Below, piece by piece: positions 7,436 through 63,471 of a stretch of 64,000 nucleotides of DNA. Position numbers and translations under genes: made by a program. Every line of letters starts with the position of its first letter. The first letter of the stretch is position 1. Source of the DNA: an uncultured Gammaproteobacteria bacterium (lineage in GTDB: Bacteria; Patescibacteriota; Patescibacteriia; Patescibacteriales; UBA12465); contig CAZPPI010000004.1 of assembly GCA_964588435.1 (NCBI GenBank), forward strand, positions 12-64,011, given 5' to 3'. The notes beneath the pieces were generated by a model that made no database searches, was not told where the DNA came from, and was given only the letters and a program-made list of their open reading frames with translations.

Positions 7436-8008
7436 TTATAAATTTAAAAAACCCACTAATTTGTTGAGTTTTTTATTATTAATTTTATTTAAATATTTCT
7501 TAATCTTTTGCTTATCCAATAAAGTTAAATTCATGGATTCCGGATCAAAACAGCTATAGCCATTTAAAGAGAGGTAGGCTAAATCCAAAAAAGCTTTTTC
7601 CGGTTCCGCTAATAAAAAATTTTGGACTTTTTTATATCCCCAAAACAAATTTGAATTAATATGCCGATAAACCAATAATTGATTATGAATATTAAATTCT
7701 TTCCCTCTTTTAATAGTGACTAAAGTAAGCCCTGAAGCCTGTTGGCTCAAAACATTATAATAATTAAGAGCTGATTCCAAAGAAATGTAACTAGGCGCAT
7801 AAATATTAATAGCAAGATTTTCCCAAGAAATATCATTAATATCCTTAGTGTATAATCCTTTGCCGAGTTTAGCCATTTCTCCGGCTTTTATTGCTCGACT
7901 AACGGTTACTCTCAAACTTTCTTTATTGTCACCAATAATCTTCTGTAAATCCAGAAAAGAAAAATATACTTTAGGGATATTATTTATTTTTTTTAATAAT
8001 TTGCTCAT
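7436..8008 (-). CDS. AbiEi-like putative antitoxin / transcriptional regulator (wHTH)
   Basis: 190 aa. The N-terminus (FSFLDLQKI...LRVTVSRAIKAGEMAKLGKGLY) resembles the AbiEi wHTH ending in the RGxY-like motif. Its size and pairing with the AbiEii-like gene fit the family. Confidence 0.5.
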   Translation of the reverse strand: MSKLLKKINNIPKVYFSFLDLQKIIGDNKESLRVTVSRAIKAGEMAKLGKGLYTKDINDISWENLAINIYAPSYISLESALNYYNVLSQQASGLTLVTIKRGKEFNIHNQLLVYRHINSNLFWGYKKVQNFLLAEPEKAFLDLAYLSLNGYSCFDPESMNLTLLDKQKIKKYLNKINNKKLNKLVGFLNL

Positions 8009-8672
8009 ATAATTGTATCATTATGGGATAATATTTCGGCGGCAAAAACACCTGTAATTCATTCCTAAACTCTCGCTCCTTAAATTTTGGCGTTAGGGGC
8101 GGCAATGTAAAATTAATTCTTAGGGATTGCGATATATACCATAAATCAAAAATATCTCTGGCTTTTTTTCTATCGGCAATAGCCGCCTCTTTTAATCTTT
8201 TTAATTCTTCAAGCGTAGCTGTTAAAAGCAGGGGGGATAAAACGCTAATGGGGCTTTTAATCAGATTCAATTTGGTTACCAAATTTATCTTTTGGCCGGG
8301 TTTATAAATTTCTATCTTTAAAGAAAAGGGGTGTTTTAAATTTTTATCTCTTATTTTAAATAAAGCAAAAATAGTTTTTCTTTTATTTTTTAAATCACTT
8401 AATATCCAGTCCTGCCGCTCAGCTAAGCCTTTGATAAATTTACTAAATTTATTAAAATCAATTTTTTTTAATTCAATTAAATCTATATCTTCCGAAAATC
8501 GCGGTGAATTATAAACCAGACGTAAAGCCGTTCCACCATAAAAAGCGACTTTGGTGCTTAATTCATTTTCGGCTAATTCGTTCAAAAAAATCATCTCTAC
8601 TTCCTCGCGAACAATCTTGTCTTCGGAAATCTTTAATTCTTTTTTGAATTGCCTTAGTTGATCTAAATTCAT
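7980..8672 (-). CDS. abiEii: nucleotidyltransferase of the AbiEii/AbiGii (DUF1814) toxin family
   Basis: Pol-beta-type NTase motif FYGGTALRLVYNSPRFSEDIDL. 230 aa. Overlaps the next ORF by 29 nt. Confidence 0.7.
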   Translation of the reverse strand: MNLDQLRQFKKELKISEDKIVREEVEMIFLNELAENELSTKVAFYGGTALRLVYNSPRFSEDIDLIELKKIDFNKFSKFIKGLAERQDWILSDLKNKRKTIFALFKIRDKNLKHPFSLKIEIYKPGQKINLVTKLNLIKSPISVLSPLLLTATLEELKRLKEAAIADRKKARDIFDLWYISQSLRINFTLPPLTPKFKEREFRNELQVFLPPKYYPIMIQLYEQIIKKNK

Positions 8673-8861: not shown

Positions 8862-8870
8862 AAATATACG

Positions 8871-8954
8871 TGCCGCGGGCGGGAATCGAACCCGCACTGT
8901 GTCGCCACAACTGGATTTTAAGTCCAGCGCGTCTACCAGTTCCGCCACCGCGGC
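8871..8954 (-). tRNA. tRNA-Leu (anticodon UAA), class II with long variable arm
   Basis: Acceptor GCCGCGG/CCGCGGC, anticodon arm CTGGA-CTTAAAA-TCCAG, long variable arm, T arm GCGGG-TTCGATT-CCCGC. Confidence 0.9.
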
Positions 8955-18735: not shown

Positions 18736-18892
18736 TTAGAAACTAGTTAGTATACAAAAAGGCCTTCAATTTAATTGAGGGTCTTTTTTTATAGAAAATA
18801 GAAAAAGAAAAAGCAGACACTTGCGTGTCTACTTTTTGGGTTATGGTTCAAAACCCCGTCTTTCTTGTTAACCTGTTTTAATTCGTTCTCAA

Positions 18893-19225
18893 TTACATCA
18901 AAATCGCTTCAATTTCTTCTTTTAAAGCTTCTTTGTTCTTTAAACCAATAAATTCACCAATAACTTTTCCGTCTTTAAATAATTTTAAATTAGGAATGCT
19001 TTGAATTTGATATTGAATTGCTAAATCCTGATTTTCACCGTCTTCAGTATTAACTTTAACAATTTTAATTTTTCCTTCCATTTCCGTTGCTAATTCATCA
19101 AGAATTGGCGCCATCATGCGACAAGGCATACACCAAGGAGCCCAAAAATCAACCAAGACCGGACCTTCGTTTTTTAAAACCTCGATCTCAAAATTACTTT
19201 TCATGACATCTAACGCTTTAGACAT
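18893..19225 (-). CDS. trxA: thioredoxin
   Basis: 110 aa. Active site WAPWCMPCR. Confidence 0.93.
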   Translation of the reverse strand: MSKALDVMKSNFEIEVLKNEGPVLVDFWAPWCMPCRMMAPILDELATEMEGKIKIVKVNTEDGENQDLAIQYQIQSIPNLKLFKDGKVIGEFIGLKNKEALKEEIEAILM

Positions 19226-19315: not shown

Positions 19316-20011
19316 CTATTTCCTTAAAATCAACCAAATATTTTTTCCGCTTTTATAAAACTCTTCTATCTCTAAGCCAGCGGCTTTCGCTAAATTTTTT
19401 AATTCCTTATCTTTAAAAGCGTGATAATAACGATTACTTTTTGACCTACCGTCACCACTAGTCCATAAAAACAATAAATCTCCACGTTCTCTGCCATCAA
19501 AAGAAAAAATTCTTTTAGTTTCTGATTTCCTAACAAGCTCATCAAATCTTTTTTGGCCATAGAAATCCCAAACACTTAAAATTATCCGACCACCAACTTC
19601 TAGTCTTGCCGCTAAATTTCTTAAAACCTCGACGCGCAAATTACGATCGGGAATATGTAAAATTACTGCAATTAAAAAAATAAAATCATATTTTTTATTT
19701 GGCAATCTTTCAAGTTTTAATAAATCATCAACAAAAAACTCCTGCTCCTTATAGTTTTCTCTAGCAAGGGTAATTAACTCTGGGCTTAAATCAAAACCGC
19801 TATAATCTACTTTTTTTCCGTTAAAAGCCTCTAATAATCTCCCATTACCACAGCCAGCGTCTAATATTTTTGCCCCCTCAAAAACAAGTTCAGAAAACTT
19901 TTCCATTTCTGGCCATAAATATTTTTTTCGACTAATATCAAAATCTGTCGCAATTTCTGAATAATTTTGCTTAACAATATTTAATAATTTTTCTCTGGTT
20001 TTTTTTCTCAT
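19316..20011 (-). CDS. class I SAM-dependent methyltransferase, Trm9-like (tRNA mcm5U34 methyltransferase family)
   Basis: SAM motif ILDAGCGNGRLL. Three blocks parallel yeast Trm9 as I recall it: YSEIATDFDISRKKYLWPEMEKF, YDFIFLIAVILHIPDRNLRVEVLRNLAARLEVGGRIILSVW, and NRYYHAFKDKELKNLAKAAG. Confidence 0.6.
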   Translation of the reverse strand: MRKKTREKLLNIVKQNYSEIATDFDISRKKYLWPEMEKFSELVFEGAKILDAGCGNGRLLEAFNGKKVDYSGFDLSPELITLARENYKEQEFFVDDLLKLERLPNKKYDFIFLIAVILHIPDRNLRVEVLRNLAARLEVGGRIILSVWDFYGQKRFDELVRKSETKRIFSFDGRERGDLLFLWTSGDGRSKSNRYYHAFKDKELKNLAKAAGLEIEEFYKSGKNIWLILRK

Positions 20012-20022
20012 GATTTTTGGGG

Positions 20023-21801
20023 CTAATCTAAATACTCTTTATAACGATAGTCTTCACCGTTTTTCTTTTTTTGGCGAGCAAGTTTTAAACAGGAATCACA
20101 TTTTCCACAATCAGGACTATGATGATCACCAAAATATTTTAAAATATAATTCTGACGACAATCAAGAGTATAGGCATAACCCTCCATCTCATCTAATTTC
20201 TCATAAGATCTGGAAGCCTTCTCTTTTAAAGCTTTGAAATCAATTTCCAAATCTTCCGGCTGCAAAATTTTTAATAATTTAATTTCCGTGCCCCTGAAAG
20301 GCGGTTGGTACTCAACCAAATCGCTTTCGGCCAATTTTTTAATTGTCCTTAAAATAGAATCTTTTTTTAAACCCAAAACAACCGCAACTTCTTCGGGATT
20401 AAACTCCCAGCCCTCGGTTAATTTATTAAAATATTTTTCTTCTAAACCTAAAACAACCTCTAGTTGTGTTTTTGCTCTTTTAGAAACTGATTCAATTACC
20501 TCGCTCCAAGGTTTTTTTGTTTTTAAAAATGAATTTGAAGTTTTTTCATTCGGCCGACTAATATAACCGCTTCGTTCTAAAATTTTAAGAGCGGTTCCAA
20601 TTGCCATCTCTGGAGTTTGCTCACTTAAATTTTGTCCAATTTCAGCATAAGTTATTAGAATTGAATCCTTCGGATTTACAAGACTATCGGCGCGACCAAG
20701 CAAAAATTCATAAACTTCTAAAATTATTTTTGGATCAGGATTATCACCTTTAATAAAAAATTCTCTTAAATATCTATCCTGTTGATTATAAAATAATAAA
20801 CAAAAACTAGGTTTTCCATCTCGTCCGGCTCGTCCCGCTTCCTGATAATAAGCCTCAATGGTTCCCGGTAAATCGTGATGAATAACAAAGCGAATATCCT
20901 TTTTATTTATTCCCATCCCAAAAGCATTAGTGGCAACAACAACTCGCGCCTCGTCTTTTAAAAACTGGTCTTGAACCCAGCTTCGACTACTAGCATCCAT
21001 TCCGGCGTGATAGGAAACCGCTTTAATATCATTTTCAACTAGGCGTTCTAAAATTTCATCCGCTTTATTTCTCGTCCCAACATAAATAACGCCAGAACCT
21101 AAATCAGGATTAGTAACTAAAAAATTAACAATGCTTTCTATCTTTTGATTATTGGGAGTTGGGATAACTGCAAATTGTAAATTAGGCCGAGAAAACCCAG
21201 TAACAATTGTTTCATGATCTTTAAATTGAAGTTGGCGAGCGATATCATCACGGACTTCCGGGGTAGCTGTTGCCGTTAAAGCAACAACCGGAGGTGAGCC
21301 CACAATTTTTATGGCTTCTTTAAGACGTAAAAAACTTGGCCTAAAATCATGTCCCCACTGACTAATACAATGAGCCTCATCAATTGCAAATAAAGAAACT
21401 TTAATTTTTTTAAGTTCTCCTAAAAACTGAATATTATAAAATCGTTCTGGGGCAATATAAATTAATTTAAATTCTCCCCGACTAACTTTTGCCATTCGGA
21501 TTGAGGCTTCTTCTGATGAAATTGAAGAATTAATAAAAGTCGCTGGGATTCCAACTCGTTCCAAAGAATCAACCTGATCTTTCATTAAAGCAATAAGAGG
21601 AGAAATAACAATCGTCGCTCCTTCAAGAATTAGGGCGGGTAGTTGATAAATCATTGATTTGCCACCACCAGTCGGTAAAACAACAACTGTATTTCGTCCC
21701 GCTAAAATATTATCAATCGCTAGCTCCTGACCAGGCAAAAAAGACCCATAACCGAAATGGATCTTTAGAAGTTCTAAAAGTTGTTGTTTTTTTTTAAACA
21801 T
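20023..21801 (-). CDS. recQ: RecQ-family ATP-dependent DNA helicase
   Basis: Motifs TGGGKS, DEAHCISQWGHDFRP and QEAGRAGRDG. A Zn-binding CR...YFG...CGKCDSC block sits at the extreme C-terminus. Confidence 0.9.
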   Translation of the reverse strand: MFKKKQQLLELLKIHFGYGSFLPGQELAIDNILAGRNTVVVLPTGGGKSMIYQLPALILEGATIVISPLIALMKDQVDSLERVGIPATFINSSISSEEASIRMAKVSRGEFKLIYIAPERFYNIQFLGELKKIKVSLFAIDEAHCISQWGHDFRPSFLRLKEAIKIVGSPPVVALTATATPEVRDDIARQLQFKDHETIVTGFSRPNLQFAVIPTPNNQKIESIVNFLVTNPDLGSGVIYVGTRNKADEILERLVENDIKAVSYHAGMDASSRSWVQDQFLKDEARVVVATNAFGMGINKKDIRFVIHHDLPGTIEAYYQEAGRAGRDGKPSFCLLFYNQQDRYLREFFIKGDNPDPKIILEVYEFLLGRADSLVNPKDSILITYAEIGQNLSEQTPEMAIGTALKILERSGYISRPNEKTSNSFLKTKKPWSEVIESVSKRAKTQLEVVLGLEEKYFNKLTEGWEFNPEEVAVVLGLKKDSILRTIKKLAESDLVEYQPPFRGTEIKLLKILQPEDLEIDFKALKEKASRSYEKLDEMEGYAYTLDCRQNYILKYFGDHHSPDCGKCDSCLKLARQKKKNGEDYRYKEYLD

Positions 21802-22778
21802 TATTTTAAATCAGCCATTATTTTCTTTGCTAAATGATGAGCGAAGTTTACGGCAACTGCATTTCCAATCATTTTATATCCATCTGCTATATCACGATAT
21901 TTAAAAATAAAGTCGTCTGGAAAGGTTTGAATTCTTGCACATTCACGAACAGATAAACGGCGATATAAATGCTCTTTTCCTGGAACAAAAATTCTTTTAT
22001 TTTGTTCAATGAATTTCATTTTTGGAGCTTGTGGATGAAGTGGCGCATGACGCCCCCCGGCCTGAATTGTAAAACTTGGTTCATCCCAACTTCTTACACG
22101 ATTACGTGACATGTAAATTGAGGAAAAACCTCCATTCATATACTCATGATTTGGTATTTTCAAAACATTACCGTTTGTTTTATTTTTATCTAGCGCTGGT
22201 TTTGCTAAACGTAAATCATAAATAGCATCTTTTAATACAGGTTTATATTCTTGTGGTTCTGGAAATTCAAATTTCTTTTTTAATCTTTTATGATAACCAA
22301 CAATAATAACACGAAATCTATCCTCTGGAACATCATAATCATTTGCATTTAATAATTTACAGGAAATTTTATATCCAGCATTTTCAAACTCCTTTATTAT
22401 ATTTGAAAAAGCCTCTTTATGTTTAGGATGAAGAATGCCTGAAACATTTTCTGCAAGAAAAAATTTTGGCTGTTTTTCTTTTAATAAACGTATATAGTCA
22501 TAAAATAATTTTCCTCGTTTATCATCTATCCCCCGTCCCGCCCCAGCCTCGCTCCAACTTTGACAAGGTGGACCACCAATTATTCCGTCAACATCAGGAA
22601 TTTCAGAGGCAGGGACATTCACAATACTTCTTTTATCAAGCTTTGTTTTCGGAAAATTATGCTCAAAAGTTTCCCAAATTGTAGAATCATATTCATTTGC
22701 CCAAACAACATGAAAACCAGCTTTTTCAAAGCCCAAATCAAGTCCTCCTGCTCCTGTAAATAATGAAGCTATTTTCAT
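21801..22778 (-). CDS. DNA (cytosine-5)-methyltransferase, M.HaeIII-like (predicted GGCC)
   Basis: C5-MTase motifs [23 protein letters not shown] and QTFPDDF...GNAV. The variable/TRD region ([10 protein letters not shown]...PNHEY...FMSRNRVR.W.EP.FT.QA.GR...LHPQAP) closely parallels M.HaeIII as I recall it. Confidence 0.88.
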
Positions 22779-22780
22779 AA

Positions 22781-23761
22781 TTATTCGTGACTAATATTTA
22801 GTGTATTTTTAAATAATTTTTTTGGTGATTTCAAAAGATTTATATCAAATTTCAAAGACGATTCAACTCTAGAGCTGGCGTTGTGAATACGAAACGAAAG
22901 TGTCCAACCATTATTCATAGTTACTATTGCTGTCGTTTGACTATCTGTCTTGAAGCAAATATCAACAATTTCTGTAGGCAATGGGACTCTTGGTGTTTTG
23001 TATTTTGGAGAGATATCATTGAAGGGTAAATTTAATGTTCCATTTAAATTATAGGCTTGTATTTCTACACTATTTTTTCCTTTAATCACCTTATAAAAAT
23101 CTTTATTACCAACGAGATACGCGACTAGATTGTTTGCCACCTTCACAGAATCTTTTTTGTAGAGTTGTTTTAATTCTTTAATAAATGCCTCTAAAATTGG
23201 TATATAAATTGACGAATGATAATCACCAAGTTCACTCCATTTTTTCCTTGCATTACTATCTCTCCTAATACTTTCTAAACTATTAAAAATAGGTGTTACT
23301 GTATTAAAGTATTCTTTTGAAGTTTTTATTCCAAGCCATTTTTCACCAAAATCAATGTTTGAAGATAATCTAGAATGTTTTACTGCATGATGATTATTTT
23401 TAGCGGATACCCCAATTTCCCATTTTTGCAATAAACGAATTGCTAAAACATCTCTCACATCACCAGATTTTCCGTGTTGATCGGATAAAATTTCAAGTTG
23501 TAAAATATCATTTTTACCAATATCATTTATCAGTCTTGGCTCTATATCCATTAAAAAATTAACTGTAAAACTAGCGGTGAGCAAATAATCACTCTTTTTT
23601 GTTTCGCTCACATTTTCAAAACAACCTTTTGCAATGTCAAAAGAAGAATTTTTAATAACCTCAAGCTTTGTTTTATTTTTTAATTTTTCTTCAAATTGAA
23701 TAAGTAAAGCATACTCAAAAGCCTTTCCTGTTGTCATTTGTTTTGATGCAGTAGTAATCAT
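22781..23761 (-). CDS. putative type II restriction endonuclease (HaeIII-like partner of the adjacent methyltransferase)
   Basis: 326 aa ORF ending 2 nt before the MTase start. The size fits R.HaeIII-family enzymes. Assigned mainly from context. Confidence 0.55.
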
Positions 23762-23862
23762 ATTTTTATTATTACATTTTTCTCCTTATAAATAAACCAT
23801 TTTCAGAGCGGAGAAAACACCTTATTACCTATCTTAAATAAAAAAATTTAAAATTTTTATTT

Positions 23863-24666
23863 CTACTCTCCAGAGTTCTTCCTCTTAAAAATTTCTAAAA
23901 CATTTTTTAATAAAAAAGCAATAGTCATCGGACCAATTCCTCCGGGAACTGGGGTAATAAAACTAGCTTTATTTTTAAGACTCTCAAAGTCAGCGTCGCC
24001 CTTAACTTTTCCCTCAACTTTAACCGTACTAATATCGATAATAACCGCCCCCTTTTTAATATTTTCCGCTTTAATTGTTTCCGGTTTTCCTAAGGCGCTA
24101 ACAATAACATCAGCTTCATTCATTTCGTCACGACTCAAAAAGCTACTTATACCTAGTTTTTCTAAAGTTTCTTTTAAACCATTACCAAAGACATCAGCAT
24201 TATATAACAAACAAGCTGAACTTTCCTTAAAATTAATCTTAGTATTTTCTAAAGAAGCTTTAACCGCCGCTAAAACAGGGGAAAGAATATAGTCGGGATG
24301 ATCGGGATGAAAACCATCAACATCTTTTTCTGGATCAAGGGTTTTAATTATTTTATTAGTGTTTAAATTCTTTGGTAACGGTAATTGAATTAAAATTCCG
24401 TCAACTAAAGGATCATGATTTAAAAATTCTACAACTTCAAGTAAATCTTCCTCGGAAACAGTTTCCACTAAACGATAAATATGAGTATCAATTCCAACCT
24501 TAACACTTTCCCTTTCCTTTAAAGAAACATAAAGTTTAGAATCTTCTCTCTCGCCAACCAAAATAATCGCTAAGTTTGGTCTATCATTTTTAAATTCAAA
24601 AACTTCTTTAGCAATTTTATCTTTTATTTTTTCGGCAATCTTTTTTCCGTCAATTAGTTTAACCAT
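23863..24666 (-). CDS. folD: bifunctional methylenetetrahydrofolate dehydrogenase/cyclohydrolase FolD
   Basis: MVKLIDGKKIA start, ILVGE...S..Y and PVPGGIGPMTIA motifs. 267 aa. Confidence 0.92.
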   Translation of the reverse strand: MVKLIDGKKIAEKIKDKIAKEVFEFKNDRPNLAIILVGEREDSKLYVSLKERESVKVGIDTHIYRLVETVSEEDLLEVVEFLNHDPLVDGILIQLPLPKNLNTNKIIKTLDPEKDVDGFHPDHPDYILSPVLAAVKASLENTKINFKESSACLLYNADVFGNGLKETLEKLGISSFLSRDEMNEADVIVSALGKPETIKAENIKKGAVIIDISTVKVEGKVKGDADFESLKNKASFITPVPGGIGPMTIAFLLKNVLEIFKRKNSGE

Positions 24667-24701
24667 AAAAATTTAAACAAGAACTTAATTTCAACCTCCT
24701 T

Positions 24702-25943
24702 CTAGCTAGGAATTTTAAATCTTGAACAAAGCTCTTTAATTTTTCTCTTTAATTCTTCCAATTTAATTTCATCATCTTTATTTAAAAAAGCTTCATCCAT
24801 ATAAGAAACAACTAATTTAGCCTCCAGTTCTTTCATCCCTCTAGTTGTCATTGCTGGTGTTCCAACTCTAATTCCTGAAGGATTCATCGGCGGGTTAGGA
24901 TCGTTTGGAATAGTTGAACGGGAAACAGAAATGCCAATTTTCTCTAAAACTTTTTCCGCTTCTTTGCCAACCATAGCTTTTGGGCTCAAATCTAAAACAA
25001 AAAGATGGTTATCGGTCCCGCCAGAAACAACTTTATAACCGCGGCTTAAAAATTCTTCAACCATCGCCCTGGCATTTAAGATTGTCTGCTTAGAATATTC
25101 TTCGAATTCCGGTTTTAAAGCCTCACCAAAAGCAACCGCTTTTGCTGCTGTCATGCTGTTATGTGGTCCACCTTGCATGCCAGGAAAAACGGCACTATTT
25201 ATTTGTTTAGCAAATTTTTCCTTACACATTATTATCGCTCCTCTTGGTCCTCTTAAGGTTTTGTGAGTTGTGGTTGAGACAACATCAAAAATTGGCACTG
25301 GGTTTTTTAATTGTTTTCCAGCAATTAAGCCGGCGATATGAGCAATATCAGCAAAAGTATAGGCGCCGATTTCATCAGCAATATCTTTAAAGGCTTGCCA
25401 ATCAATTTCTCGCGAATAAGCGCTAAAACCAGCAACAATCATTTTTGGTTTTTCAGCCAAGGCAACTCTTCTTACTTCCTCCATATCAATTAAGCCAGTT
25501 TTCTCATCAACCCCGTATTGAACAAAGTCATAAAGACGACCAGAAAAATTTACGCTATGACCATGGGAAAGGTGCCCGCCGTGATCAAGTTTTAAACCTA
25601 AAACCTTATCGCCCGGATTTAAAAAAGCCATATAAACCGCAGCGTTAGCTGGTGAGCCGGAAAGGGGTTGAACATTAACATGTTCGGCTTCAAAAAGTTT
25701 TTTCGCTCTTTCTATCGCTAAAGTCTCAACCTCATCAATGATATAATTACCGCCATAATATCTTTTACCAGGATAACCTTCGCTATATTTATTTGCCAAA
25801 ACAGTCGCCATCGCTTCCATAACCGCTGGCGAGGCATAGTTCTCCGAAGCAATTAATTCGAGTTCATTTTCTTGACGCTTTTCTTCTTTCAAAATTGAGG
25901 CAAAAAGCTCAGAATCTTGTTTTTCCAAGTGATTATAAAGCAT
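24702..25943 (-). CDS. glyA: serine hydroxymethyltransferase
   Basis: ELIASENY, TTTHKTLRGPRG (PLP lysine) and GGTDNHL motifs. 413 aa. Confidence 0.96.
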   Translation of the reverse strand: MLYNHLEKQDSELFASILKEEKRQENELELIASENYASPAVMEAMATVLANKYSEGYPGKRYYGGNYIIDEVETLAIERAKKLFEAEHVNVQPLSGSPANAAVYMAFLNPGDKVLGLKLDHGGHLSHGHSVNFSGRLYDFVQYGVDEKTGLIDMEEVRRVALAEKPKMIVAGFSAYSREIDWQAFKDIADEIGAYTFADIAHIAGLIAGKQLKNPVPIFDVVSTTTHKTLRGPRGAIIMCKEKFAKQINSAVFPGMQGGPHNSMTAAKAVAFGEALKPEFEEYSKQTILNARAMVEEFLSRGYKVVSGGTDNHLFVLDLSPKAMVGKEAEKVLEKIGISVSRSTIPNDPNPPMNPSGIRVGTPAMTTRGMKELEAKLVVSYMDEAFLNKDDEIKLEELKRKIKELCSRFKIPS

Positions 25944-25987
25944 GTTTTTATAAATTAGCGGGCTCTCAAAATAATAATTACCTAATA

Positions 25988-26016
25988 ATCTTAGTCCTTA
26001 AAACGTCTTTTGTCAA
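25988..26016 (-). promoter_or_regulatory. putative glyA-folD promoter
   Basis: Minus strand TTGACA (26016..26011), N17, TAAGAT (25993..25988). Confidence 0.5.
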
Positions 26017-26024
26017 AATGAGGC

Positions 26025-27674
26025 TTATTTAATTTTCTTAAATAAATAGCTATCTTTTAACCTATAACCAAGCTTCCGATAATAACCCCTAACCCCAACT
26101 CCGGAAATCACAGCAATTTCTTTTGCCTTATTTTCACGAGCAAGCTCTTCCGCTTTTTTCATTAACTCTTTTCCTAAGCCAAGATGCTGAACTTTTTTTG
26201 TTACCAAGTCTCCTGCCGGAACTAATTCGCCATAAACATGGAGTTCGCGAATAATGGCTTCGGCAACTGGACTGTTTTTATCTATTCTTAAACGACAAAA
26301 ACCATATAATATTTTTCCATCTAAACTATCAATGGAAATAAAATATTCTTGACCAGCTGAGGCGGGATAAGTTTCTATATTTATTTGATGCTTTAAAATT
26401 TTTCCATCTTTTACTTCTCGACAACGAATACAATTACATTTCACCCCCCTATCTTTCATTACCTGTCTTAAATTGGTGATTTTATTGCCGGCCATAATTG
26501 ACTCCCCGGGAATATCGCGGATTAAACGAATTATGCGCACATATTTTGGTACTAATTCTTTGCATTTAACGATTAGTTCCTGTAAAACTTTATCGCTATA
26601 AGGCTTATATTTACCCGTTAAGAACCATTTATACAATAAGCTTCCTTTAGTAACCACGGTTGGATAAAATTTAATTTGATCAGGCTGAAATCTTTCGTCT
26701 GTAAAAAGTTTTTTAAATATTTCTAAGTCTTTTTTTGGAGTAGCGCCAGGAAGAGCGGGCATTAAGTGATAAGTTATTTTAAACCCATACTCTTTTAAGC
26801 TCTTTGTCGCCTCAACAATTTCTTTAACTCCGTGACCTCTCTTATTAAGTTTTAAAATTTCATCATCAGCCGCTTGCACACCAATTTCAACTCTAGTACA
26901 ACCTAAAATTCTCATCTCTTCTAATTCTTTTTGGTTGATATAATCTGGCCTTGTTTCTAAAGTTAGACCAATAATCTTATATTCCGCTTTTTCATTTTTA
27001 TTTTGTTCAAAAATTAATTTTTTCTTTAAACTATCTAGACTTAAGCTTTCCTTATAAACCGCTTTTAATTCGTTTTTGAAAAGATGCACTTCTTTTTCAA
27101 GGCCTTCGCTATAATTTGTTTTAATTTTTTTTCGTACCACGGCAAAATCGTTAGCGGCTTTAAAGCAGTTTAAAATATACCAATACTTATATTTCTCCGG
27201 TAAATAACTCCAAGTTCCGCCAATAACGATGATTTCGATTTTTTTCGGACTATGACCATTAGTTTCTAAAGCTTTGAGTCTCAAAGCGACTTGAACATAA
27301 GGATCGTAAGCACAGCGAATTGCCCGCATAACCGCTGGCTCATTAGATAAATAACTAACTGGAACATCCTCACTTTCGCGCGGACAATAAGCACAAGTCC
27401 CGGGACAAGGATAAGGTTTAGTTAAAACCGCAACCGGAGCAATACCCGACATAGTTCTAATTGAACGCTTTTTTAAAATTTGTTCTAAGACTGGATTGGC
27501 TTTTATCAAGTCTTTTTCTAATAAGTCTTGATAGGCTCGCCAAATATCAGAGTTTAAAATAGAGTTAATTTTATATTTTTTGCAAAATAAACGCTTAACC
27601 GCGTCTAAATCGCCGCGACTTTTAATTTTTTTTCCGTAATCTTTAACTAATTCCTTGTTTGCTTCCTCTATCAT
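26025..27674 (-). CDS. elp3: Elp3-family radical SAM / GNAT acetyltransferase (tRNA U34 cm5 modification enzyme homologue)
   Basis: 549 aa. Radical-SAM cluster motif CPGTCAYC (CX3CX2C) and a TIM-barrel region, followed by a C-terminal GNAT with the acetyl-CoA loop QHLGLGKELM. The domain order matches Elp3. Confidence 0.85.
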   Translation of the reverse strand: MIEEANKELVKDYGKKIKSRGDLDAVKRLFCKKYKINSILNSDIWRAYQDLLEKDLIKANPVLEQILKKRSIRTMSGIAPVAVLTKPYPCPGTCAYCPRESEDVPVSYLSNEPAVMRAIRCAYDPYVQVALRLKALETNGHSPKKIEIIVIGGTWSYLPEKYKYWYILNCFKAANDFAVVRKKIKTNYSEGLEKEVHLFKNELKAVYKESLSLDSLKKKLIFEQNKNEKAEYKIIGLTLETRPDYINQKELEEMRILGCTRVEIGVQAADDEILKLNKRGHGVKEIVEATKSLKEYGFKITYHLMPALPGATPKKDLEIFKKLFTDERFQPDQIKFYPTVVTKGSLLYKWFLTGKYKPYSDKVLQELIVKCKELVPKYVRIIRLIRDIPGESIMAGNKITNLRQVMKDRGVKCNCIRCREVKDGKILKHQINIETYPASAGQEYFISIDSLDGKILYGFCRLRIDKNSPVAEAIIRELHVYGELVPAGDLVTKKVQHLGLGKELMKKAEELARENKAKEIAVISGVGVRGYYRKLGYRLKDSYLFKKIK

Positions 27675-32379: not shown

Positions 32380-32393
32380 ATATTATTTAAAAG

Positions 32394-32465
32394 TACGCCC
32401 GGGGGGAATCGAACCCTCATAACCAGCTTAGAAGGCTGGTGTTCTATCCATTGAACTACGGGCGC
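32394..32465 (-). tRNA. tRNA-Arg (anticodon UCU)
   Basis: Acceptor GCGCCCG/CGGGCGT (G1-U72), D arm GTTC-AATGGATA-GAAC, anticodon arm CCAGC-CTTCTAA-GCTGG. One A-C mismatch in the T stem. Confidence 0.85.
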
Positions 32466-36418: not shown

Positions 36419-37558
36419 CTACTGTCTAATTGGCATAACAATATAAAGATAATCATCAAGTCCGCTCTTTTTAATAATACAGGGAGAGTTATTATTCAGA
36501 ATTAGTATTTCAACTAATTCTGAATCAATATTATTTAAACCATCTAAAATATATTTAAAATTTATAGTTATTTCATTTTCTTCACCATCATTCTTAGATT
36601 CAATTTTTATTTTACTTTCACCACTAGCCCCAGAAAAAGATGAAATTAATATCTGATTTTTTTTAAATTGTAATAAAATATCATTTATCCCGTTTTTTGA
36701 AAACAAAGAAGCTGCTTTAATTGCCCTTAATAGTTCAATTTTATTAACTAGGGCACTTGTTTTTGTTTGGGTTGGAATTATTTGCTTATAATCTGGGTAG
36801 TTTCCATTAATTATTCTTGAAATAAGTGAGGTTGAATTAAAAGTAAATAAAATTTGATTATCAGAAAAAGAAATGTTTATTTTTCCATCATTATCATTAG
36901 ATTCACTAATATTATTTAAAATTCTTAATAACTCCTGAATTGTTTTAGCCGGAACTATTAATTTAAAACTATTTAAATCTTCCTTTAGATTTTTATTAAT
37001 ATTTTGATCTATTTTTAAAATCTTTTCAGCTAATCTATAACTATCTGTTGCCGCTAAATCAAGTGAACTTTTAGAAAAAGAAAATAAAACTCCAGTTAAT
37101 TCTAATCTATTTTCACTAGTTGAAACAGAAAAAATAACACTATTTAGAGCCTTACGAAAACTTTCAATTTCAAAAGAAAAAATATTATTACTTTCAATGG
37201 TTGGTATTAGAGGAAATTCCTTTGATGATTCTCCTTTTATTTTTGTTTTATAATTACCAGATTCTATTATTAATTCATTATCAACTAATTTAAATGAAAC
37301 CTTTTCGCTAGAACTTAATAAATTAATATAATCTGTAATAAGTCTTGAATTAACAGTAAATTCCCCATCACTTTCAACCTTACCTCTAACCTTAGAACTA
37401 ACACCGATTTCTAAGTTAGTACTAATAAATTCTATTTCACCAGAATAAATTTTAATTAATATATTATTTAGAATTGGTAAATTTATATTTTTAGAGCTTG
37501 TATGACTAACTATATTTAATCCCTTTTTTAAATTTTCTTGTAAACTAATAAATTGCAT
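36419..37558 (-). CDS. dnaN: DNA polymerase III beta sliding clamp
   Basis: 379 aa, three-domain clamp length, N-terminal MQFISLQENLKKGLNIV. Located immediately downstream of dnaA. Confidence 0.9.
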   Translation of the reverse strand: MQFISLQENLKKGLNIVSHTSSKNINLPILNNILIKIYSGEIEFISTNLEIGVSSKVRGKVESDGEFTVNSRLITDYINLLSSSEKVSFKLVDNELIIESGNYKTKIKGESSKEFPLIPTIESNNIFSFEIESFRKALNSVIFSVSTSENRLELTGVLFSFSKSSLDLAATDSYRLAEKILKIDQNINKNLKEDLNSFKLIVPAKTIQELLRILNNISESNDNDGKINISFSDNQILFTFNSTSLISRIINGNYPDYKQIIPTQTKTSALVNKIELLRAIKAASLFSKNGINDILLQFKKNQILISSFSGASGESKIKIESKNDGEENEITINFKYILDGLNNIDSELVEILILNNNSPCIIKKSGLDDYLYIVMPIRQ

Positions 37559-37866
37559 ATTTATAAAATTAATTGTTTCTTTATTAATATATTAATTATA
37601 ATATAATTAACTAATAGTAATAATAAGGAGAGGGGATAAGTTAATTATTTGAAATAAATTTTTATTTTATCTTTTGTTTTAGGTTTAATTATTAAAATTT
37701 TTATTGTTAATAAGTTATAGTCTATTCTGTTAACTAAATTTTATGCTTTGGGGATTACTTTTTAAGATTTGATTTTATTAACATTTACTTAATTAATTTC
37801 AACAGGTTTTTAGCAGCTAATTAACAATTTATTAACATAATATTTTTAGCTAATATTAAAATTTAA
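37559..37866. other. AT-rich dnaA-dnaN spacer with a repeated 9-mer (candidate oriC half)
   Basis: 308 bp non-coding. TGTTAATAA 37705..37713, TGTTAACTA 37728..37736, TTATTAACA 37775..37783, TAATTAACA 37818..37826, TTATTAACA 37829..37837. Confidence 0.45.
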
Positions 37867-39285
37867 TTATCCTTGAACAAATAATTGTTTAATTGATTCT
37901 AGTTCTTGTTTTAATTTTTCGTTATTTCCGTCTTGTATTTCTTTACTTATTTTATTATAGGAATGCATGGCGGTTGTGTGGTCTCTGCCACCCAACTCTT
38001 CACCAATGGTTGGATAAGAAGTATTTAATTCCTCTCTAATTAAATAAATTGAAATTTGTCTTGGCTTAACTAATTCTTTTTTTCGACTTTGTCCTACTAA
38101 ATCCTTTAAATTTAAATTATAATATTTAGCAGTTGCTTCAATTATATTTTTTGGAGAAAGTGATTTACTTTGAATATTTGAAATATAATCATTTAAAATT
38201 TCTTTAACACTTTTTAATTCTGGTTTTATTCCACGAAATTGATGAAAAACAATAACTTTATTTAAAGCTCCTTCAAGTTCACGGATATTATTTTGTACAT
38301 GATCGGCTATATAGGCTAATATTTCTCTATCAAGAGGAAAATTTTTTTCAATTGCTTTTTTTTCTAAAATAGCTAATTTTGTTTCAACGTCTGGTTTGCC
38401 AACATCAGCAACCATTCCTGATTCAAAACGAGAAATAAGCCGTTTTTCGATGGCTGGCATTGCTTTTGGTGGTCTGTCAGAGGTTAAAACAATTTGTTTA
38501 TCATTTTGTTGAAGTTCATTAAAAGTGTGAAAAAATTCTTCTTGGGTTCCATCTTTTCCACCCATAAATTGAATATCATCAACTAAAAGCAAATCAACAT
38601 TGCGATATAAATTTTTAAATTCTTTAGCCTTTCCACTTTTAACTGCTTGAATATAGTTATTAGTAAACTTTTCACTAGTACAATATAAGATTTTGTCGGT
38701 TTTTTTTGCAACCGCATTACCAATTGCCTGAAGAAGATGTGTTTTACCTAAACCAACCCCACCATAAATAAAGAGAGGGTTATAGGCCCTTCCTGGATTA
38801 TTAACAACCGCTAAACAAGCGGCATGAGCCAATTCATTTCCCTTACCAACAATAAAATTTTCAAATAAATAACGAGAATTTAAACCAAATTTATTAATAC
38901 TTTTTCCATTTTGATCACACTCCCCATTATCATTATTACCACCGCTATCCTCAATTTTTATTTCGGACAGTTCAATTTGATTTTCTAATTCTTCTCCCAA
39001 ATCTTTAATTATAAAAGAGTCTTCTGTTTTTTGTTTTTTTAATTCAACCTTATAAATAATTTCTTTAATTTCTTGTTTGGTAACGTTCTCTAAAGCTTTA
39101 ATTATATTTTTATGATATTTTTCTTCTAACCATTTTTTAACAAAAGCGCTAGGAACACAAATAATCATGCTATTATTCTCAAATTGAGAAATAAAAGTAT
39201 CTTTAAACCAAGTTACAAAATTAACTCGGGATAAACTTAATTCGATTTCACCTAAAACAGCTTTCCAAACTTGATCATTGGTCAT
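37867..39285 (-). CDS. dnaA: chromosomal replication initiator DnaA
   Basis: AAA+ Walker A GGVGLGKTHLLQAIGN, Walker B LLLVDDIQF, and a C-terminal DNA-binding domain (GGRDHTTAMHSY). Confidence 0.96.
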   Translation of the reverse strand: MTNDQVWKAVLGEIELSLSRVNFVTWFKDTFISQFENNSMIICVPSAFVKKWLEEKYHKNIIKALENVTKQEIKEIIYKVELKKQKTEDSFIIKDLGEELENQIELSEIKIEDSGGNNDNGECDQNGKSINKFGLNSRYLFENFIVGKGNELAHAACLAVVNNPGRAYNPLFIYGGVGLGKTHLLQAIGNAVAKKTDKILYCTSEKFTNNYIQAVKSGKAKEFKNLYRNVDLLLVDDIQFMGGKDGTQEEFFHTFNELQQNDKQIVLTSDRPPKAMPAIEKRLISRFESGMVADVGKPDVETKLAILEKKAIEKNFPLDREILAYIADHVQNNIRELEGALNKVIVFHQFRGIKPELKSVKEILNDYISNIQSKSLSPKNIIEATAKYYNLNLKDLVGQSRKKELVKPRQISIYLIREELNTSYPTIGEELGGRDHTTAMHSYNKISKEIQDGNNEKLKQELESIKQLFVQG

Positions 39286-39487
39286 AAAAAAAATTAAAAA
39301 TAGATAATTAATTTAATATAAACATTATATTAAATATATATGATTACAACAAGCCAGAAGCTGCTTAAAAGTTGTTAATAAGAAGGGGAAAACTAAAAAA
39401 AAGAAATATTAAGATTTATATTGACTCTTGAAACTAAACGTGTTATCTTAGATTAGAAGAAATAATTGTTAATCCTAAAAGAAGAAT
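39286..39487. other. dnaA-rpmH divergent intergenic region (candidate oriC half; contains both promoters)
   Basis: dnaA promoter TTGTTG-N17-TATAAT (39352..39324, minus). Putative rpmH promoter TTGACT-N17-TATCTT (39421..39449, plus). Further 9-mer copies TGTTAATAA 39373..39381 and TGTTAATCC 39467..39475. Confidence 0.45.
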
Positions 39488-39625
39488 ATGCCAAAAAGAA
39501 CTTATCAGCCCAATAAAAAAAGAGCTAAGAAAAAACATGGTTTTTTGAAAAGAATGTCTACTAAAGATGGTAGGGCTGTTTTAAAACGCCGTCGCGATAA
39601 AGGAAGAAAAAGCTTGTCTAAATAA
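39488..39625 (+). CDS. rpmH: 50S ribosomal protein L34 (not in the ORF track)
   Basis: Hand translation [45 protein letters not shown]. Canonical L34 sequence and position upstream of rnpA. Confidence 0.93.
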
Positions 39626-39641
39626 TAATAGACGAAGGTCA

Positions 39642-39968
39642 ATGCCTAAAAACACTTTAAGCAAAAAAAAAGACTTGGACCAGATTTTCAAAACTGGTCT
39701 GTCTTTTTATTGTTCTGTTTTGGGCCTGAAATATTTACCTAACACACTAGGCTTTAATAGATTGGGAATAGTTATTGGTTTAAAAGTTAGTAAAAAAGCG
39801 GTTATTAGAAATAAGATTAAAAGACAGATTAGAGAAATTGTGAAAAATGATTTTCCTAAAACAGAGATTTCTTATGATCTTGTAATAATAGCAATTAAGG
39901 GTTTAGAAACGAAGAATTTTTTAGAAATTAAAGAGTCTTTATTAAAGTTGGGAAAAGGATTAAAATAA
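39642..39968 (+). CDS. rnpA: ribonuclease P protein component
   Basis: 108 aa basic protein with the RNR-like motif (AVIRNKIKRQIRE), between rpmH and yidD. Confidence 0.88.
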   Translation: MPKNTLSKKKDLDQIFKTGLSFYCSVLGLKYLPNTLGFNRLGIVIGLKVSKKAVIRNKIKRQIREIVKNDFPKTEISYDLVIIAIKGLETKNFLEIKESLLKLGKGLK

Positions 39969-39993
39969 ACTTAAGTTTAATTAAATATTAAAA

Positions 39994-40251
39994 ATGTTTC
40001 ATTTTATTGATAATTTTTTAAAAAAAGGGGTAATTTTTCTTATTAAGTTGTATCAAAAGACTTTATCACCAGATCATGGAGTTTTTAAACATAGATATGT
40101 ACATGGTTTTTGTCGTTTTTATCCTACTTGTTCTGATTATTCAATCCAAGCTATTAGTAAATATGGCATAATAAAGGGCGGACTTAAGTCGGCCTGGCGG
40201 ATATTAAGATGCAACCCTTTTAATAAAGGGGGTAACGACCCACTTAAATAA
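39994..40251 (+). CDS. yidD: membrane protein insertion efficiency factor YidD
   Basis: [20 protein letters not shown]......[12 protein letters not shown] pattern. Confidence 0.92.
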
Positions 40252-40285
40252 AAGTTTAAATAATTATTAAGTTTAAAATAAATAT

Positions 40286-41038
40286 ATGGGAAATTTTTTT
40301 ACAACCTTTTTTTATCAACCAATTTTTAATTTATTGATTTTTATTTATAATTTTGTTTCATTTCAAGACATAGGTGTTGCTATTATTGTTTTAACTATAG
40401 TAATCAAAGGGCTTCTTTGGCCCCTAAGTAAGTCTTCAATTAAATCTCAAAAAGCCCTACAAGATTTACAGCCAAAGTTAAAAGAATTAAAAGAAAAATA
40501 TAAGGGTGATAAAGTTGCTTTAAGTCAAGCAACTATGGATCTTTATAAAGAAAACAAAGTTAATCCCTTTTCTTCTTGTTTACCACTATTAATTCAGTTT
40601 CCTTTTTTAATTGCAGTTTTTCAGGTTTTTAGGGATGGTGTTAATAGTAAGCTGGATTTAGTTTATTCCTGGATTTATCGCCCAGAAACAGTTGATATGA
40701 TGGCTCTAGGTTTAGTTGATTTAAGTAGCCCTAATGTTTACTTAGCAGTTTTAGCTGGATTAGCTCAATTTTGGCAAGCAAAAATGATGGTTACCAAGAA
40801 GCCGGAAGTAAAGATCGAAGGCTCAAAAGATGAAAATATGGCAGCGATTATGAGTAAACAAATGCTATATTTTATGCCAGTTATTACGATTTTTATTGGT
40901 ATTTCCTTGCCAGGTGGACTTACTCTTTATTGGTTTTTCTTTACTCTCTTAACCGCTCTACAACAATTATATACTTTTAGAAAAACCAATAATAATCAAA
41001 CAGAAAATAAAACAATTGAGGGTGAGATTATAAAATAA
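40286..41038 (+). CDS. yidC: YidC/Oxa1-family membrane insertase (short form)
   Basis: 250 aa. YKENKVNPFSSCLPLLIQFPFLIA and GLTLYWFFFTLLTALQQ blocks. Confidence 0.92.
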   Translation: MGNFFTTFFYQPIFNLLIFIYNFVSFQDIGVAIIVLTIVIKGLLWPLSKSSIKSQKALQDLQPKLKELKEKYKGDKVALSQATMDLYKENKVNPFSSCLPLLIQFPFLIAVFQVFRDGVNSKLDLVYSWIYRPETVDMMALGLVDLSSPNVYLAVLAGLAQFWQAKMMVTKKPEVKIEGSKDENMAAIMSKQMLYFMPVITIFIGISLPGGLTLYWFFFTLLTALQQLYTFRKTNNNQTENKTIEGEIIK

Positions 41039-43638: not shown

Positions 43639-43714
43639 TGGTGGGCATAGATGGAATTGAACCATCGACCCCCGCTTTATAAGAGCGGTGCTCTAACCCC
43701 TGAGCTATATGCCC
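43639..43714 (-). tRNA. tRNA-Ile (anticodon UAU), CCA encoded
   Basis: Acceptor GGGCATA/TATGCCC, D arm GCTC-AGGGGTTA-GAGC, anticodon arm CCGCT-CTTATAA-AGCGG (U33, U34-A35-U36, A37), T arm GATGG-TTCAATT-CCATC, A73, CCA. Confidence 0.88.
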
Positions 43715-61330: not shown

Positions 61331-61774
61331 TTAGTTTGCACTTGGGGTGATTGACCCCATAGCAGGAAAAAAATTTTGTATGCCTTCTTTTTTAATTTTA
61401 TGAGAATAGAAGCTCATGTTAATCAAACAATAATGAACAAGTATTACGGGAATATTTATTTCTCCCTGAGTTTCTCCAATTATTATCCATTTTTTTGAAT
61501 CCAAAAAATTGAATAAATGTTCATTAATGCGATTGATTCCGTTAGAAGCAGTTGCATCAAAGTTTCCTGCGGTGATACAAACACTTCGTGATTGGATTTG
61601 TTCGGGTGAGTAAATTTCTTTCACCAGAATTTGGATGCGTACCTGTCTCTCGGGTTCAATCTCTATAATGCCACTTATTCTAAGTTCATTAACGAGACCA
61701 CGGACAAGTAAAGTCCAATGTTCTTCACCTGTTTCTAGTTTAATGCTTCCGGTAGTTTGGATTTTTCCTTTCAT
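61331..61774 (-). CDS. hypothetical protein (147 aa), first gene downstream of the 16S terminator
   Basis: Clean ORF with its own TTGACA-N17-TAAGTT promoter (61844..61816). No motif recognised. Confidence 0.55.
   Translation of the reverse strand: MKGKIQTTGSIKLETGEEHWTLLVRGLVNELRISGIIEIEPERQVRIQILVKEIYSPEQIQSRSVCITAGNFDATASNGINRINEHLFNFLDSKKWIIIGETQGEINIPVILVHYCLINMSFYSHKIKKEGIQNFFPAMGSITPSAN

Positions 61775-63309: not shown

Positions 63310-63346
<37 letters not shown>

Positions 63347-63423: not shown

Positions 63424-63471
<48 letters not shown>

Follow-up and report, generated by a model that had tools for sequence, protein, structure and literature searches.

Elp3 and a Trm9-type methyltransferase form a conserved bacterial gene pair that probably modifies the tRNA wobble uridine

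The pathway leading from 5-carboxymethyluridine (cm5U) to 5-methoxycarbonylmethyluridine (mcm5U) at the wobble position of tRNA (U34) is already known in eukaryotes and in one archaeon. In eukaryotes, it is carried out by Elongator (Elp1-6) together with Trm9-Trm112 or ALKBH8-TRMT112. In archaea, stand-alone Elp3 makes cm5U in vitro (cited in PMC7663514 and PMC13315578), Haloferax volcanii Trm9 (HVO_1032) makes mcm5U from cm5U both in vivo and in vitro, and in Sulfolobus the genes for Elp3 and Trm9 lie in a cluster (PMC6144793). The structure of a bacterial Elp3 is also known. Bacterial Elp3 was described as "a rare example" (PMC6367351) and as belonging to "one specific anaerobic bacterial clade," with no xcm5U34 derivative demonstrated in bacteria (PMC7663514), and a 2026 paper places Elp3 in "numerous bacteria." Here, we analyzed a stretch of bacterial DNA of 64,000 nucleotides (the window), essentially a complete 64-kb Patescibacteria contig, which encodes an Elp3 and a 231-amino-acid (aa) class I S-adenosylmethionine (SAM)-dependent methyltransferase of the Trm9 type (Table 1). 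The original prediction, made from the sequence of the window, had placed the two open reading frames (ORFs) about 6 kb apart on one strand; both were confirmed, on the minus strand and 6,013 bp apart. What it did not foresee is that the pair is conserved in a head-to-head arrangement across dozens of bacterial species. The two proteins very probably constitute a functionally coupled Elp3/Trm9-type pair.

Like the archaeal systems of H. volcanii and Sulfolobus solfataricus, the window has a stand-alone Elp3 without Elp1, 2, 4, 5, and 6 and a small Trm9-type methyltransferase. However, mcm5U has been seen in vivo in H. volcanii, whereas the host of the window is a bacterium for which mcm5U is the predicted product, and H. 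volcanii Trm9 requires Trm112, whereas the window contig and the neighborhoods of the pair carry no Trm112-like gene. Compared to the eukaryotic system, the two catalytic folds, the essential residues, and the predicted chemistry are the same, but the window lacks the accessory Elongator subunits, and its methyltransferase is a single domain without the RNA recognition motif (RRM) and AlkB domains of ALKBH8. In addition, the window Elp3 has a prokaryotic zinc-binding Cys triad that is missing in eukaryotic Elp3, and H115 of Saccharomyces cerevisiae Trm9 (ScTrm9) is a Leu in the window lineage. The closest solved structure is the Elp3 of Dehalococcoides mccartyi (DmcElp3; PDB 5L7J, 6IA6), the reference for bacterial Elp3, which shares with the window the zinc triad, a Glu at the position of Q461 of Methanocaldococcus infernus Elp3 (MinElp3), and a Trm9-like neighbor. 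It differs in lacking the basic ∼68-residue N-terminal extension of the window protein, an archaeal/eukaryotic-like feature whose absence is tied to weak tRNA binding, and the window protein also has a ∼48-residue insertion at residues 177 to 225. The Dehalococcoides genes are divergent and adjacent rather than on the same strand and 6 kb apart.

Two other bacterial systems are related in purpose. MnmE/MnmG (with MnmC or MnmL/MnmM) likewise build C5 side chains on U34 of split-box tRNAs, and MnmL/YtqA is a radical-SAM relative of the corresponding Elp3 domain that pairs with a methyltransferase, MnmM/YtqB. However, the MnmE/MnmG enzymes and their chemistry are unrelated: a GTPase and an FAD enzyme use glycine or ammonium and methylenetetrahydrofolate (CH2-THF) to generate 5-carboxymethylaminomethyl (cmnm5) or 5-aminomethyl (nm5) groups. 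CmoM of Escherichia coli is, like Trm9, a class I methyl-esterase acting on the carboxylate of a U34 C5 side chain (cmo5U to mcmo5U), but it belongs to a different family and to a different substrate pathway (CmoA/CmoB).

The genome context is the decisive evidence for the coupling of Elp3 and the methyltransferase. An exhaustive HMMER scan at an E value of ≤1e-30 returned 1,371 representatives of the methyltransferase family at 50% identity, and close relatives of the window protein form about 90 clusters at 90% identity, nearly all from Patescibacteria. When each GTDB species was represented by a single genome, scanning gave 271 methyltransferase relatives, and the best 80 loci were kept and searched by tblastn with the window Elp3. 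An Elp3 gene was found within 10 kb of the methyltransferase gene in 66 of these 80 loci. In 58 of the 80, the two genes were head-to-head (divergent) and no more than 1 kb apart; in four they were divergent but farther apart, and in another four they had some other orientation. Among the 14 loci with no Elp3 within 10 kb, seven could not be properly tested, since their upstream sequence was shorter than 5 kb. When the ORFs of all 80 loci were clustered, only two recurrent families emerged, the methyltransferase (80 loci) and Elp3 (66 loci). No third partner, be it Trm112, an NcsA/MnmA thiolase, or an Elongator subunit, recurred in the 80 loci, the only other recurrent ORFs being antisense shadows inside Elp3.

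By record title, the 80 loci come from many lineages of the candidate phyla radiation (CPR), from Chloroflexota (Anaerolineales, Caldilineaceae), Thermoanaerobaculia (Acidobacteriota), and Fermentibacteria, from one myxobacterial metagenome-assembled genome (MAG), and from archaea (Pacearchaeota, Crenarchaeota). The archaeal members of the methyltransferase family adjoin Elp3 in loci L037 and L070. The closest species-representative methyltransferase, 91% identical to that of the window, is from a Candidatus Falkowbacteria MAG (L006). Since several "binchicken" MAG titles are clearly unreliable, we relied on counts of distinct species and not on names. For example, five loci (L007, L010, L030, L036, and L026) carry titles such as "uncultured Gammaproteobacteria" or "Pirellulales," yet their Elp3 is 45 to 76% identical to the CPR protein and their synteny is CPR-like; the "uncultured Gammaproteobacteria" titles go with a CPR-type Elp3 of 65 to 76% identity. 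Their labels look unreliable, or short contigs may be mis-binned.

The pair is also present in closed genomes, namely, CP066698.1, OW818634.1, and D. mccartyi CP019867.1. Comparison of the loci suggests how the arrangement in the window arose. The Buchananbacteria loci show the canonical order, with Elp3 on the minus strand and the methyltransferase, DUF8173, and PGM genes on the plus strand, whereas at the same place the window has Elp3 on the minus strand followed by DUF8173 and PGM on the plus strand. It thus seems that, in the window lineage, the methyltransferase gene has moved away from its ancestral site. In the order typical of Falkowbacteria, Elp3, a variable segment, serine hydroxymethyltransferase (SHMT), FolD, RecQ, and the methyltransferase are all encoded on one strand, and the methyltransferase starts 2 to 11 nt after recQ. 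This order is found in a closed 977-kb genome (L001) as well as in L007 and L030, and the RecQ-methyltransferase junction of 2 to 8 nt is kept in L001 and L089 to L092. A reverse test gave the same picture: the methyltransferase followed RecQ in all four Elp3-anchored CPR loci, on contigs of 98 to 896 kb. The divergent pair with a single shared intergenic region is the commonest arrangement and probably the ancestral one. In the window lineage, the methyltransferase gene would have moved to the end of the same-strand array Elp3-glyA-folD-recQ, possibly forming one transcript with it, before a restriction-modification (R-M) cassette was inserted there.

Several independent lines of analysis identify the methyltransferase as Trm9 type, in its sequence and its modeled fold. 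The protein contains the blocks YSEIATDFDISRKKYLWPEMEKF, ILDAGCGNGRLL, YDFIFLIAVILHIP...ILSVW, and NRYYHAFKDKELKNLAKAAG, which align with the matching blocks of Yarrowia lipolytica Trm9 in the Trm9-Trm112 complex (PDB 5CM2), in line with the Trm9-like blocks that the original prediction had recognized. When the single sequence was searched against solved structures by phmmer, the top match was 5CM2_Z (6.4e-14), which aligned over residues 32 to 230, including the C-terminal RYYH block, whereas the runner-up (3.4e-9) aligned over the Rossmann core only. A family profile built from 34 members sharpened this difference: 5CM2_Z was matched over its full length at 7e-28 (100.6 bits), compared to 1.1e-17 for the runner-up, again limited to the Rossmann core, so that the resemblance to Trm9 goes well beyond chance. 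The AlphaFold2 model of the protein was of good predicted quality (predicted local distance difference test [pLDDT] score, 90.1; predicted template modeling [pTM] score, 0.88), and a Foldseek search of the PDB with this model also placed 5CM2_Z first (E value, 3.1e-17; TM score normalized to the target, 0.83). Profile searches of both proteins, which the original prediction had proposed, recovered Elp3 but returned only generic class I families (Methyltransf_23/25/31/12/11) for the methyltransferase in Pfam/NCBIfam, with no Trm9-specific model among the matches. The named NCBIfam families, among them CmoM, CmoB, UbiG, UbiE, and BioC, all stayed at or below 49 bits, with cut-offs of 100 or more; assignment as CmoM or CmoB was rejected at 20.3 bits (cut-off, 366) and 24.7 bits (cut-off, 209), respectively. 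One JGI record of a homolog (P0068) is named "tRNA (uracil-5-)-methyltransferase TRM9," and otherwise the databases label the family generically.

The fourth line of evidence comes from functional residues. Alanine mutants of ScTrm9 at R29, D72, H116, W145, W168, R241, Y243, and N271 are zymocin resistant and inactive or strongly impaired, whereas the H115A mutant keeps ∼25% of its activity (Létoquart et al. 2015, PMC4678810). All eight essential residues are kept in the window protein, as R28, D74, H119, W148, W183, R194, Y196, and N224, respectively. Conservation across the family was counted using one sequence per species from 80 species. The equivalents of R29 and D72 were present in all 80, that of W145 in 79, those of H116 and R241 in 77 each, that of H115 in 73, and that of W168 in 71, so that the essential residues of Trm9 coincide with the columns of the family alignment that vary least or not at all. 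Less conserved were the equivalents of N271 (56 of 80; Gly in many Chloroflexota, possibly an effect of the C-terminal alignment) and Y243 (31 of 80; Val or Cys being common).

The partner is a bona fide full-length Elp3 by its sequence. Against NCBIfam TIGR01211, the ORF scored 542.1 bits (cut-off, 350), with residues 15 to 548 covering profile positions 9 to 522 of 522. Pfam detected Radical_SAM (PF04055; 5.4e-18), Radical_SAM_C (PF16199; 7.5e-20), and GNAT matches at residues 444 to 539. The architecture anticipated by the original prediction, a CX3CX2C motif followed by a GNAT domain with a QHLGLG loop, is therefore borne out, the two motifs being located at residues 90 to 97 and 496 to 501. 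The closest solved structures were DmcElp3 (5L7J; E value, 3.7e-112) and MinElp3 (E value, ∼1e-104). The second-best NCBIfam model, TIGR01212 for radical-SAM proteins of the MnmL/YtqA type, was rejected: its score was only 78 bits (cut-off, 180), and the window protein, which carries a GNAT domain, is therefore not of that Elp3-related family. It is 100% identical to NCBI protein P0121, encoded on a contig of 64,066 bp, and Elp3 is 67 to 100% identical across more than 100 CPR clusters. Key residues named for MinElp3 are the trigger lysine K150 and the acetyl-coenzyme A (acetyl-CoA) residues K266, Q461, and Y517 (Lin et al. 2019, PMC6367351). Three of these four are conserved in the window Elp3, as K145, K299, and Y531, and Q461 corresponds to E477, the same residue type as in DmcElp3 (E386). 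For this mapping, the chain-to-residue offset was taken from the C384/C389 pair, and all four mapped positions gave the expected residue types. The N terminus is basic (18 Lys/Arg among 75 residues), and the alignment with DmcElp3 starts only at residue 69; such a basic extension has been tied in the literature to efficient tRNA binding by archaeal and eukaryotic Elp3. The insertion at residues 177 to 225 is a Lys/Glu-rich stretch in the radical-SAM domain that is unaligned to either DmcElp3 or MinElp3. We also noted that the product name attached to TIGR01211 by the NCBI annotation pipeline PGAP ([quoted passage not shown]; P0128, P0149, P0386, and others) is chemically misleading. The carboxymethylaminomethyl group (cmnm5) is the product of MnmE/MnmG, whereas that of Elp3 is carboxymethyl (cm5).

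A good example of the pair in a cultured organism is D. mccartyi. In CP019867.1, Elp3 is head-to-head with, and 43 bp from, the gene for a 224-aa class I methyltransferase (L093, 9283..9957), and a related 1.0-Mb contig (L094) shows the same arrangement. Profile-profile comparison by hhalign matched the D. mccartyi methyltransferase to the CPR family over its full length (probability, 99.8%; E value, 1.4e-28), and it keeps the R, D, HH, W, W, RYY, N signature. Thus, the same module occurs in an organism that is in culture and whose Elp3 structure has been solved. About 2 kb from the pair, both loci also encode QueH (epoxyqueuosine reductase), a further tRNA-modification enzyme, and a GNAT acetyltransferase (L093, 7140..7688; L094, 6767..7327).

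In the mechanism that we propose, stand-alone Elp3 would bind the anticodon stem-loop of U34 tRNAs, aided by its basic N-terminal extension. Its lysine acetyltransferase (KAT) domain would hydrolyze acetyl-CoA, and the radical-SAM [4Fe-4S]/SAM site would carboxymethylate U34 at C5, yielding cm5U34. With SAM as the methyl donor, the Trm9-type methyltransferase would then convert the carboxylate to its methyl ester, yielding mcm5U34, or the 2-thio derivative mcm5s2U34 if a 2-thiolase also acts. Considering the analysis as a whole, it is likely that the window encodes a two-enzyme wobble-uridine module of the archaeal/eukaryotic type whose product is mcm5U34 or a close derivative. The two-step pathway put forward by the original prediction is supported by the family identities of the two proteins, by their kept functional residues, and by the conserved gene linkage; its chemistry, tRNA clients, and product are predicted by homology with the characterized systems.

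Several observations weigh against such a pathway. According to PMC7663514, bacteria that carry Elp3 have yielded no direct evidence of xcm5U34, and Pfam and NCBIfam recognize the methyltransferase only generically. The position of ScTrm9 H115 is occupied by Leu (L118) in the window protein, although the H115A mutant is mild, and the equivalents of Y243 and N271 vary in other lineages. The D. mccartyi methyltransferase, when searched alone by phmmer, found 5CM2_Z only in seventh place, although with the longest alignment. Cotranscription of the window array from Elp3 to the methyltransferase is plausible, its basis being only gene spacing and a consensus terminator scan. Finally, eukaryotic and H. 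volcanii Trm9 need Trm112, and a small-ORF motif scan of the 64-kb contig for a Trm112-like zinc ribbon gave only ribosomal protein L32 (3234..3437); none recurs near the pair in the 80 loci.

The generic annotation would be explained if the 231-aa protein were an ordinary class I methyltransferase (UbiG/UbiE/BioC/TehB-like) that lies near Elp3 by accident. Several homologs in JGI are named "ubiquinone/menaquinone methylase," and the two genes of the window are separated by 6 kb with unrelated genes in between. However, the named families all fall well below their cut-offs, three independent methods agree on Trm9 as the closest solved structure, and the invariant columns are the Trm9 catalytic residues. 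Moreover, accident cannot account for a gene that is head-to-head with Elp3 in 58 of 80 species, spread over several phyla, and these linkage statistics effectively refute a chance neighborhood, making an ordinary methyltransferase very improbable. Even less credible is that the genes are relics or contaminants that contribute nothing to bacterial translation and were acquired by recent archaeal/eukaryotic transfer or brought in by mis-binning of the contig. In favor of this, archaea and eukaryotes are where the pathway is typically found, and many of the loci come from MAGs with unreliable titles. But the contig is plainly bacterial by gene content, with dnaA, dnaN, rnpA, yidC, tmRNA/SmpB, trigger factor, FtsH, and bacterial 16S and 23S rRNA, and GC content is uniform across the Elp3/methyltransferase region in a chromosome segment of ∼32% GC. 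Both ORFs are intact with their catalytic residues kept, and this explanation is refuted by the genome context, given the conservation of Elp3 over the CPR clusters and the presence of the pair in closed genomes.

A more serious alternative, although still an unlikely one, accepts the Elp3-coupled module but gives it a final product other than simple mcm5U34. The methyltransferase might use another intermediate derived from Elp3, additional enzymes might turn the side chain into 5-carbamoylmethyluridine (ncm5U) or an mchm5U-like or bacterial-specific derivative, or the modification might be at another RNA position. Deletion of trm9 in H. volcanii did not lead to accumulation of cm5U, and an unidentified isobaric species was seen (PMC6144793). 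The enzyme that makes ncm5U is not known from the literature, DmcElp3, without the N-terminal extension, has weak activity on yeast tRNA, and bacterial lineages differ at the equivalents of Y243 and N271, for which contacts with the carboxylate and the uracil have been modeled. On the other side, the window protein itself keeps eight of eight essential Trm9 residues, H. volcanii Trm9 does convert cm5U to mcm5U in the same prokaryotic setting (PMC6144793), and no further conserved neighbor hints at extra steps. An mcm5U34-type product of the Elp3-Trm9 pair therefore remains the reading that we prefer.

The dependence of this pair on Trm112 can be considered from the interface of the known complex. 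The core of the Trm112 interface in Y. lipolytica Trm9 consists of V59, F78, V102, A110, P112, and F116. In the methyltransferase family, the V59 position is mostly K/R/S and the F78 position mostly D/E/S/N; the V102 and V103 positions are variable, and F116 and D117 are kept. The charged or polar residues at V59 and F78 hint at a stand-alone enzyme that may act without Trm112. As for the usual bacterial pathway, MnmE, MnmG, and MnmA are not encoded on the 64-kb contig, and tblastn searches of the window and of related loci (1.3 Mb; ∼15 kb per genome and hence not genome-wide) with the E. coli MnmG, MnmE, and MnmA proteins found only the Der GTPase. In many bacteria, the genes jag-mnmE-mnmG-rsmG follow yidC. 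The window has an oriC-type neighborhood (36419..41038) with dnaN, dnaA, rnpA, and yidC but without jag-mnmE-mnmG-rsmG after yidC; a VanW-domain gene (41112..43022) is found there in place of mnmE/mnmG. We suggest, only tentatively and with more doubt than confidence, that an Elp3-Trm9 module without Elongator accessory subunits or Trm112 is the sole xm5U34 system in Patescibacteria, and perhaps in some Chloroflexota/Acidobacteriota, where it would have replaced the MnmE/MnmG pathway, near-universal in other bacteria, and would make mcm5(s2)U34. If true, wobble chemistry of the "eukaryotic type" would serve split-box decoding in much of bacterial diversity, and mcm5U would count among the genuine nucleosides of bacteria.

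Candidate substrates are encoded in the window. The three U34 tRNAs named in the original prediction, tRNA-Arg(UCU), tRNA-Leu(UAA), and tRNA-Ile(UAU), were all found by ARAGORN. Of these, tRNA-Arg(UCU) is a canonical substrate of Trm9 in yeast. Codon counts in nine large genes of the window showed 381 AAA versus 80 AAG, 285 GAA versus 101 GAG, 70 AGA versus 14 AGG, and 276 TTA versus 51 TTG. A-ending codons are thus far commoner in the split boxes, which means that U34 tRNAs carry most of that decoding load, and decoding of A-ending split-box codons by U34 tRNAs is the context in which xm5U modifications matter. The probable clients are therefore the U34 tRNAs for Arg (UCU) and Leu (UAA) and, by extension, those for Lys, Glu, Gln, and Gly. 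A separate observation is that tRNA-Ile(UAU) is unusual in bacteria, which normally read AUA with a CAU tRNA modified to lysidine by TilS; ATA is common in the sampled window genes (73 ATA versus 89 ATG).

The mechanism itself is not new, nor is the naming of CPR Elp3 by PGAP. What appears to be new is the extension of the full two-step gene pair to bacteria. No description of a bacterial Trm9 partner or of a conserved Elp3-methyltransferase pair was found in the searchable literature, which is incomplete, so that an earlier description is possible. Elp3 is widespread in the CPR and almost always comes with a Trm9-type methyltransferase as a divergent pair. Automated annotation calls the partner only a "class I SAM-dependent methyltransferase," and a correction would cover more than 1,000 protein clusters. 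The pair also turns the question of what bacterial Elp3 makes into a testable two-step prediction, cm5U and then mcm5U, for which D. mccartyi, being cultured and having a solved Elp3 structure, and cultivable Patescibacteria suggest themselves as test systems. It bears as well on whether Trm9 activity inherently needs Trm112 and on the decoding of A-ending codons in reduced genomes.

In the window, the gene order is Elp3-glyA-folD-(R-M insertion)-recQ-methyltransferase on one strand (Table 1). From Elp3 to thioredoxin, eight genes are encoded on the minus strand with gaps of 81, 35, 101, 2, -1, 11, and 90 nt. The sole strong terminator-like hairpin of the array in the consensus scan follows thioredoxin, and that scan gave no convincing terminator in the interval from Elp3 to the methyltransferase. 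The HaeIII-type R-M pair between folD and recQ (21801..23761) is found only in the window and is missing from the syntenic loci L001 and L089 to L092. It is an insertion that lengthens the distance between Elp3 and the methyltransferase and lies outside the pathway. GGCC sites are scarcer in the window than expected, with 72 observed compared to 102 ± 9 in shuffled sequences. In several CPR lineages (the window, L001, L003, and L089 to L092), glyA, usually together with FolD, adjoins Elp3, and in L089 to L091 a Vut_1/YhhQ-type queuosine-precursor transporter and an F420-ligase-like gene lie between Elp3 and SHMT. The presence of SHMT/FolD beside Elp3 could reflect either the synteny of these lineages or a one-carbon/tRNA-modification link to Elp3.

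Table 1 Features of the Elp3-methyltransferase array, motifs of the two proteins, and candidate tRNAs in the window
Feature	Position	Strand	Evidence or remark
Elp3, 549 aa	26025..27674	-	TIGR01211, Pfam, and PDB matches; predicted tRNA U34 cm5U synthase, radical-SAM plus GNAT/KAT
Radical-SAM [4Fe-4S] motif CPGTCAYC (C90, C94, C97)	27384..27407	-	Residues 90-97; aligns with CPGKCIYC of DmcElp3
Zinc-binding Cys triad CNCIRC (C413, C415, C418)	26421..26438	-	Radical-SAM-KAT linker; aligns with CRCIRC of DmcElp3 and MinElp3
QHLGLG acetyl-CoA loop, KAT domain	26172..26189	-	Residues 496-501; Y531 nearby in GYYRKLGY
glyA (serine hydroxymethyltransferase)	24702..25943	-	ORF; first gene after Elp3 in the same-strand array
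folD	23863..24666	-	ORF and synteny; member of the conserved array
HaeIII-type restriction enzyme	22781..23761	-	Pfam RE_HaeIII, 4.7e-97
C5-cytosine methylase	21801..22778	-	Pfam DNA_methylase, 2.7e-97
recQ helicase	20023..21801	-	Pfam DEAD, Helicase_C, RecQ_Zn_bind; stop codon 11 nt before methyltransferase start
Trm9-like class I SAM methyltransferase, 231 aa	19316..20011	-	Predicted cm5U34-to-mcm5U34 carboxyl methyl-esterase
SAM-binding motif I, LDAGCGNG	19841..19864	-	D74, at the end of beta-2 (ScTrm9 D72), lies 3'; D74 in 80/80 sequences
NRYYHAF block	19415..19435	-	R194 and Y196 correspond to ScTrm9 R241 and Y243, the residues for binding of the cm5U carboxylate and tRNA
Thioredoxin	18893..19225	-	Last gene of the eight-gene array
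Terminator-like hairpin, 13-pair stem then T tract	18808..18837	-	Consensus scan; downstream of thioredoxin
tRNA-Arg(UCU)	32393..32465	-	ARAGORN, Rfam; candidate U34 substrate
tRNA-Leu(UAA)	8870..8954	-	ARAGORN, Rfam; candidate U34 substrate
tRNA-Ile(UAU)	43639..43714	-	ARAGORN

Some features elsewhere in the window were also noted. A 5' fragment of 23S rRNA lies at one end of the contig (1..445, minus strand) and a 5'-truncated 16S rRNA at the other (62958..64000, minus strand); either these two rRNA genes are not linked, or both contig ends reflect breaks in the assembly at rRNA. Starting ∼220 nt downstream of the 16S 3' end is a weak Rfam match to group II intron D1-D4 (62658..62740, minus strand; 38.7 bits compared to a gathering score of 35), beside which lies a LAGLIDADG homing-endonuclease ORF (62218..62643, minus strand). 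These may represent a LAGLIDADG-encoding intron or its remnant, and a 147-aa ORF next to this region (61331..61774) has no Pfam match. Finally, an AbiEii-type nucleotidyltransferase toxin gene (7980..8672, minus strand) overlaps an upstream 190-aa ORF without a Pfam match (7436..8008), and together (7436..8672) they look like a type IV toxin-antitoxin or abortive-infection pair.

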